Source of the DNA: Mycobacterium phage prophiT49-2
Reading direction: 5' to 3' (one strand)
Length of the DNA: 64,000 nt
Sequence record: OQ417962.1
Below the pieces are notes generated by a model. That model was not told the DNA's origin, made no database searches, and saw only the letters and a program-made list of their open reading frames with translations. Shown piece by piece: positions 58,060 through 58,920 of this stretch (within the stretch, counting starts at the first letter, position 1; the number at the start of each line of letters is the position of its first letter). The translations under genes and the position numbers were made by a program.

Positions 58060-58920
58060 ATGCCGCCCACAATGTGGATCACCCTGATCCTGCTCATCGT
58101 TGCCGGAATTGCCGTTATTGCAACTCCGATCGCGCCCCGCGAAGAACGACACATCCCACTCCTCACCGCTGCCGGTGCCGGTGTATTCGCGCTGATCTTC
58201 GGTATCTTCGCTTCGATTACCACCGTTGGTACTCGACAGATTGGTATCGAGACCACGTTCGGGCGACCGAATGGCTCAACGCTGTCCAACGGCCTACACT
58301 TCAAGGCCCCGTGGGCGAACGTCACTGAGATGGACGGGGCGATCCAGATCGACCAGCACAAGGGTGATAACCGCATCAAGGTTCGTCTAGGTAACTCTTC
58401 CACTGCAGACGCGGATGTGTCAGTTCGTTGGCAGATTAAGTAGGAAGCCACGCCAGAGCTATTCGTCCAGTACAAGACATTCGACAACGTTCGAACCAAT
58501 CTGGTCACCCGAAACCTGCAGGTTGCATTGAACGAGGTGTTCGCAACGTTCGACCCTTTGGCCCCGAAGAATCTCGACCAGTCTCCACTGCCAGAGCTGT
58601 CGGAGCAGGCCCGCAAAATCCTTGCAAGCAAGGTGGGCACCCAAGTCGAAATCTTGGACGTAGCTGTCCCGACGATCGACTACGACGAGGGCACCGAACA
58701 GAAGATCAATCAAATCAACCAGTCCCGCGCTGCCACCTCGGTGGCCCTGCAGGACCAGAAGACTGCCGAGGCCCAGGCCCGCGCAAATGAGATTCTGTCG
58801 AGCTCCGTATCACGCGACCCCAACGTGCTGGTCTCCAAGTGTCTGGACATCGCCAAGGACAAGGGCATTGCGCTCCTCTGCTGGCCGACGCCGGTCATGC
58901 CGACAGTCCCCACCAAGTAG
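58060..58920 (+). pseudogene. SPFH/band-7 (HflK/C-like) membrane protein interrupted by an in-frame TAG at 58441-58443
   Basis: ORFs 58060..58443 and 58528..58920 share a reading frame. Translating through the TAG gives a continuous SPFH-like sequence (..VSVRWQIK*EATPELFVQYKTFDNVRTNLV..). N-terminal TM helix present. Confidence 0.5.

Follow-up and report, generated by a model that had tools for sequence, protein, structure and literature searches.

SPFH proteins such as prohibitin, HflK/C, stomatin, erlin, flotillin, and QmcA are scaffolds that have in common a Band_7 domain, with an N-terminal anchor, an alpha/beta domain, and a long C-terminal helix. In the solved complexes of this family, the long C-terminal helix builds the wall of a ring- or cage-like oligomer. 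Actinophages carry band-7-like proteins as well (PHROG 200), including prophi86-1 gp106, Bongo gp116, Bxz1 gp29, and LeBron gp49; their genes are orthologous to the one described here and occupy a like position between an HNH endonuclease gene and a tRNA/tmRNA array. The literature search on band-7 proteins in mycobacteriophages returned only an overexpression-toxicity entry, according to which overexpression of LeBron gp49 is mildly cytotoxic (PMC13148394), and the search on Rv3090 returned no usable functional study. A further likeness concerns programmed UAG readthrough and amber-recoded phages, with which the present locus shares an in-frame UAG within a coding sequence of a tRNA-bearing phage.

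The stretch of DNA analyzed here (64,000 nucleotides, hereafter the window) belongs to prophiT49-2, a Mycobacterium abscessus prophage of cluster MabI, and makes up its left 64 kb. It begins at base 1 of the prophage and is collinear with Mycobacterium phage prophi86-1. The host of prophiT49-2 is M. abscessus subsp. massiliense strain T49 from Taiwan, and the prophage has 80,229 bp, 24 tRNAs, a tmRNA, a serine integrase, and a genome organization resembling that of Cluster M phages; its attP PCR was scored +++ both in cultures and in filtered supernatants (PMC9934374). The split band-7 gene is unmentioned in that paper. GenBank, on the other hand, already lists both halves as separate CDSs of prophiT49-2, each named "band-7-like membrane protein". 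The split is thus already visible as two adjacent CDSs of the same name, and it is neither a new type of element nor a recoding site.

The band-7 gene of the window consists of a single frame of 286 codons, and the TAG at codon 128 is its sole internal stop (Table 1). An earlier note on this DNA, made from the letters alone, had described two ORFs in one frame with only a TAG between them, and translation confirms this arrangement.

Table 1. Positions of the band-7 gene, its parts, and other features of the window.
Feature	Position	Strand	Basis
ORF homologous to prophi86-1 gp1 (hypothetical protein)	502-783	-	mapping of prophi86-1 CDSs
Segment with little or no nucleotide similarity to prophi86-1	~2400-5030		comparison with prophi86-1
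Segment with little or no nucleotide similarity to prophi86-1	~5860-8080		comparison with prophi86-1
HNH endonuclease gene, upstream	57443-57955	+	
Band-7/SPFH membrane protein gene, 286 codons, one nonsense codon	58060-58920	+	prophi86-1 gp106 orthologue, Pfam Band_7
N-terminal fragment ORF, ATG, 127 aa, WJJ55507.1; two predicted transmembrane helices and SPFH beta-strands	58060-58443	+	exact protein in GenBank, structure model
Premature amber TAG, codon 128; T at 58441 for ancestral C, CAG (Gln) to TAG	58441-58443	+	alignments, homologue column, contigs
C-terminal remnant ORF, TTG, 130 aa, WJJ55508.1; most SPFH helices, long C-terminal helix, Cys261/Cys274 tail	58528-58920	+	ORF list, GenBank
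Natural terminator TAG, context AAG-TAG-G, identical to the immediate context of the internal stop	58918-58920	+	sequence, stop survey
HNH endonuclease gene, downstream	59408-59725	+	
tmRNA	60242-60596		ARAGORN
tRNA-Tyr(gta)	61257-61334		ARAGORN
tRNA-Gln(ctg)	61413-61486		ARAGORN
Weak, non-canonical type-II tRNA-Ser(cga) candidate	61566-61651	+	ARAGORN, lowered threshold
GOLLD RNA (RF02032), full length	62184-62627	+	Rfam
tRNA-like gene within GOLLD RNA ("tRNA-???")	62269-62342	+	ARAGORN
Segment of ~113 nt absent from prophi86-1	63700-63812	+	comparison with prophi86-1
Long tRNA-like sequence within this segment	63720-63809		Rfam (weak)

When codon 128 is taken as Gln, the restored protein matches Pfam Band_7 (PF01145) with 68.2 bits (E 1.2e-18; cutoff 23.6 bits), and its residues 55-240 cover profile positions 2-176 of 176. 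The SPFH/band-7 identity originally read from the sequence is therefore well founded. The protein also matches PHROG 200 (E 1.1e-57), while no NCBIfam family name was matched. The stop maps near position 70 of the 176 in the Band_7 profile. Scored alone, the N-terminal 127 residues reach 24.2 bits, just over the cutoff, and the C-terminal 130 residues reach 22.7 bits, just under it.

An AlphaFold2 model was built on an intact allele (P0003; mean pLDDT 80.2). It begins with helices at residues 3-24 and 31-51, after which a beta-rich region spans 53-126 and further helices occupy 128-192. Two strands then precede a long helix (210-251) and another helix (254-268). Compared with the PDB by Foldseek, the predicted fold retrieved prohibitin, HflK/C, erlin, stomatin, flotillin, and QmcA with E values from 5e-13 to 5e-8 and a probability of 1.00, and it combines the SPFH alpha/beta domain with a long helix and an N-terminal membrane anchor. 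A search of the PDB with the family sequence profile gave no relative at E 0.001 or better; the kinship is visible by fold comparison only. Indeed, sequence identity to these SPFH scaffolds is only 13-20%, and the phage protein differs from them in having two N-terminal helices and a conserved Cys tail. Cys261 and Cys274 of this tail are invariant in the homologue alignment, and both are encoded 3' of the stop. In the window, moreover, the protein is cut before its helical half.

The ancestral state of codon 128 can be read from closely related prophages. The closest phage record, prophi86-1, carries an intact orthologue (gp106, "band-7-like membrane protein", 861 nt) with 99.2% nucleotide identity to the window gene, and a second intact orthologue is gp98 of prophiGD54-2. 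The aligned codon is CAG in the former and CAA in the latter. Six further M. abscessus prophage loci (L006-L011) were retrieved via a neighboring gene; in all six, the Band_7 gene is intact (286 aa) and reads CAG at this codon. Hence, CAG or CAA occupies codon 128 in 8/8 related prophage loci.

Two of these loci date the interruption. In L007 (ERR5413239) and L008 (DRR317513), 860 of the gene's 861 bases agree with the window, and the sole difference is the C/T at 58441; outside the gene, the two loci differ from the window at ~0.5% or more of bases, and hence belong to different genomes. The interruption is hence a single recent C-to-T transition, and the allele on which it arose is still in circulation in its intact form. 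Apart from the stop, the window gene differs from prophi86-1 at six positions, all synonymous, and comparison with the more distant alleles L009 and L010 gives 19 and 15 synonymous differences, respectively, against about 5 non-synonymous ones. This synonymous excess is the pattern of a gene kept under purifying selection until the stop appeared. The downstream half is fully coding in character because nothing besides the stop has changed relative to the closest intact allele, and the view that this is not an old pseudogene holds, as the stop mutation is all that separates the window gene from those of L007 and L008.

The wider family agrees with this picture. A public protein search gave 544 homologues at E 1e-5 or better, mostly of 282-301 aa and from Mycobacteroides and Mycobacterium genomes and prophages. 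Among 41 aligned homologues (55-99% identity), all were full length, and position 128 was occupied by Q (28), P (11), A (1), or H (1), never by a stop. In a phage collection, the family was present in 367 records, of which 333 gave one continuous match with at least 80% query coverage; the carriers include Mycobacterium clusters (among them Bxz1-like and Bongo-like phages) as well as Gordonia, Rhodococcus, and Streptomyces phages. Among the actinophage band-7-like genes examined, a premature TAG at codon 128 occurs only in the window copy, whereas the others are continuous. As a purely descriptive co-occurrence, the family is found mostly in tRNA-rich actinophages, namely Bxz1-like cluster C, Bongo-like cluster M, MabI prophages, and large Streptomyces phages.

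In the model, the stop lies exactly at the junction of the strands (53-126) and the first SPFH helix (128-138). As judged from the model, the 127-aa product retains the two predicted N-terminal transmembrane helices and the SPFH beta-strand part. Missing from it are the helical half of the SPFH domain, the long C-terminal helix, and the Cys261/Cys274 tail. By analogy with solved homologues, the intact protein may assemble into a ring or cage at the membrane. Since the stop precedes every SPFH helix as well as the C-terminal long helix and both cysteines, the allele is most likely a null or near-null of an accessory gene, as expected from truncation inside the SPFH domain.

Collectively, these observations are very probably explained by a very young nonsense allele, in which Gln128 (CAG) became an amber codon, termination is normal, the accessory gene is null or nearly so, and any full-length protein is background. 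A very recent spontaneous C-to-T change at 58441 created the stop, and translation would end there normally via release factor 1, as at the 19 other TAG-terminated genes mapped in the window, with the 127-residue fragment as the product. Full-length protein would arise only through background near-cognate misreading of UAG, mainly by tRNA-Gln(CUG), which would restore the wild-type residue. That an inserted Gln restores the wild type is a coincidence of the CAG-to-TAG origin and is no evidence of design. The loss would presumably be neutral or mildly selected. The attP signal in filtered supernatants is consistent with a band-7 gene that is dispensable for excision and release (PMC9934374). 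Accordingly, excision and release seemingly continue when a tRNA-rich M. abscessus prophage loses one accessory SPFH gene, and the two band-7-like CDSs in the prophiT49-2 annotation would be better merged into one disrupted gene. Homologues with ~55-59% identity were also seen on multi-megabase Mycobacteroides contigs (e.g., P0133 and P0064), where they represent either a chromosomal gene or one from another prophage. Judged from contigs of this type, the host may carry chromosomal band-7 paralogues.

Among the alternatives, the one that survives best is a leaky allele: the abundant phage-encoded tRNA-Gln(CUG), together with tRNA-Tyr, would read UAG in lytic growth and provide enough wild-type protein to keep the function. 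In bacteria, misreading of UAG by tRNA-Gln(CUG) is established, the ancestral residue is Gln, and both tRNA-Gln(ctg) and tRNA-Tyr(gta) are encoded about 2.5 kb downstream. However, sister prophages with an intact band-7 gene have the same two tRNAs in the same order, so their presence is no adaptation to the stop. Judging from this comparison, they belong to a tRNA set general to the lineage and are no response to the stop, and the hint of readthrough that had been seen in them loses its force, as they stand equally beside intact genes. The stop has the same immediate context as the true terminator of the gene, and a G also follows the stop codon at 8 of the 19 TAG terminators. No stimulatory structure was found 3' of the stop, where the 103 nt from 58438 (58438-58540) fold no better than shuffled sequences (z-score +0.30). 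Bacterial readthrough at background level usually stays well under a few percent. SPFH proteins act as stoichiometric multimeric scaffolds. The leaky allele is therefore regarded as unlikely. Equally improbable is a conditional form of it, in which an excess of tRNA-Gln(CUG) in lytic growth would yield low, late-phase-specific amounts of wild-type protein and the lysogen would make the fragment only. A related reading of similarly low probability is that inactivation was selected, which would require band-7 expression to be a burden on the lysogen. If true, a leaky allele would be a small natural case of phage tRNA supply altering stop-codon fidelity; it finds no support here.

The tRNA content on which this comparison rests is as follows. 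With default settings, ARAGORN detected 11 tRNAs and the tmRNA in the window. The earlier note had counted a tmRNA and at least 12 tRNAs, Gln(CUG) and Tyr(GUA) among them; the tmRNA and these two tRNAs are present, the default tRNA count is one lower, and a twelfth is plausible through the weak tRNA-Ser(cga) candidate. This candidate appears in the window at a lowered ARAGORN threshold and in the sister prophage L008 at the default one.

Less probable still than a leaky allele is a sequencing or assembly artefact, in which case the true codon would be CAG and the gene intact. The change concerns a single base, and the prophiT49-2 record was extracted from WGS contigs (PMC9934374, methods), but the same T recurs elsewhere. 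Contig ERR5412506_24 (67 kb; L012) is 100% identical to window positions 48060-64000 (15.9 kb), contig SRR16940184_49727 (6.5 kb) is 100% identical to positions 54458-60930, and both have T at 58441; they are among four contigs on which the exact 127-aa product is found. With the same TAG in independent assemblies of two sequencing runs, ERR5412506 and SRR16940184, a random base-call error, for which resequencing had been proposed as a check, is very unlikely. The two data sets possibly derive from one isolate (T49) or clone, and a laboratory-stock mutation is compatible with them.

Programmed readthrough, or reassignment of TAG as a Gln codon, has almost no probability left. The large tRNA set, the tmRNA, and genes for an RF-1-domain protein, RtcB, and PTH2 do amount to a heavy investment in translation. 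Nevertheless, the stop is absent from this site in every orthologue examined, so that the conservation expected of programmed readthrough is lacking, and the flanks of the stop are identical to those of intact alleles. TAG is a normal terminator in this genome: among 88 mapped genes, 51 end in TGA, 19 in TAG, and 18 in TAA. When ~100 CDSs of prophi86-1 were mapped on the window, internal stops were found only in the band-7 gene and in the doubtful gp1 ORF, leaving one credible gene of ~100, and genome-wide TAG reassignment was rejected on this ground and on that of TAG terminator usage. The gp1 ORF has two in-frame stops, its differences are mostly non-synonymous, and its product is rich in Pro, His, and Cys; it is probably no real gene in either prophi86-1 or the window.

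A suppressor tRNA was not found either. None of the tRNAs called at default settings in the window has a CUA anticodon. The contig L012 (ERR5412506), which runs about 4.4 kb past the end of the window and spans the whole array, contains 23 tRNAs and the tmRNA, again with no CUA. Lowering the ARAGORN threshold to 80% (-ps80) added plausible tRNAs of non-canonical form (Ser-cga, Ser-gct, Arg-cct, and Ser-tga) and still no CUA, and Rfam searches with E up to 1 gave no cta anticodon. The only call with a stop anticodon was an antisense artefact overlapping tRNA-Glu. The tRNA-like gene reported as "tRNA-???" was likewise rejected as a suppressor: prophi86-1 carries an identical copy alongside an intact band-7 gene, and the element is a tRNA-like part of GOLLD RNA. 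In the right arm of prophi86-1, the equivalent of the last ~12 kb of prophiT49-2, there is no further tRNA. The statement in the earlier note that the window has no CUA suppressor thus extends to the full array of L012, the permissive threshold, and the right arm of prophi86-1.

In comparison with systems of programmed readthrough and amber recoding, therefore, the stop is unconserved and not a genome-wide feature, neither a suppressor tRNA nor a stimulatory structure accompanies it, and TAG serves as a normal terminator. The suggestion of programmed readthrough fails on the missing conservation, on the same context at the gene's own terminator, on the lack of RNA structure, and on the near-cognate tRNAs that also stand beside intact genes. 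Recoding is unsupported, and the locus holds an ordinary young nonsense allele that most likely abolishes the function of this accessory gene. One false lead in the search for mycobacteriophage stop-codon recoding is thereby cleared away.

As a separate observation, L012 carries just past the window end, after the tRNA array (17376-19545 of the contig), genes for a small RF-1-domain protein (PF00472; 97-112 aa, an ArfB-like size), an RtcB RNA ligase, and a PTH2 peptidyl-tRNA hydrolase. With the tmRNA included, they make up a set of genes for translation rescue and tRNA repair.

A functional split gene, with the second half made by reinitiation at TTG 58528 or GTG 58537 and the halves reassembling or acting alone, is as hard to credit as recoding: both halves are GenBank CDSs and the in-frame starts lie 85-94 nt past the stop, but the sequence ahead of these starts offers nothing better than weak AGG or GAG matches as a Shine-Dalgarno sequence, the break falls inside the SPFH domain and leaves the C-terminal half without a membrane anchor, no split occurs among the 41 homologues or the 333 phage records with at least 80% coverage, and the split is one mutation old, therefore leaving no time for adaptation. 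Routinely split orthologues, which the earlier note had named as grounds for discarding readthrough, are ruled out by the same counts; the orthologues are unsplit with a sense codon at position 128, which itself counts against readthrough. The young nonsense allele remains the preferred explanation.

Several features in the surroundings of the gene deserve mention. The tRNA array contains a full-length GOLLD RNA (Rfam 198.6 bits, gathering score 150, E about 1e-54) that encloses a tRNA-like gene; tRNA-Phe follows 9 nt after its end. Mycobacterial tRNA clusters, including those of M. abscessus, are known to contain GOLLD RNAs in which a pseudo-tRNA is embedded (PMC6582537); in the related prophi86-1 record, this RNA is unannotated as an RNA feature. 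ARAGORN gives the enclosed tRNA-like gene a two-base anticodon, "tg", and its anticodon loop can be drawn with 6 nt on a 6-bp stem or with 8 nt (TATTGGAA) on a 5-bp stem. The element is 100% identical in prophi86-1, where it is annotated as tRNA-Gln(ttg), and it is present in L006-L009 too. Further downstream, the segment of ~113 nt that is absent from prophi86-1 holds a long tRNA-like sequence with a weak Rfam match to tRNA-Sec (21.6 bits), two T-arm-like GGTTCGA motifs, and an ambiguous anticodon, though one other than CUA.

Near the left end of the window, the two segments that diverge from prophi86-1 have flanks that are 97-98% identical to it. The prophi86-1 counterpart of the first segment (~2400-5030) is a cassette with a WXG/polymorphic toxin, a lipoprotein, and an immunity gene, and the divergence fits the exchange of toxin-immunity cassettes in M. 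abscessus prophages (PMC9934374). Around the band-7 block, HNH endonuclease genes are located on both sides (Table 1), and L006 and L011 have an Endonuclease_7 gene at the position of the downstream HNH gene, which suggests a turnover of mobile nucleases around the band-7 locus.
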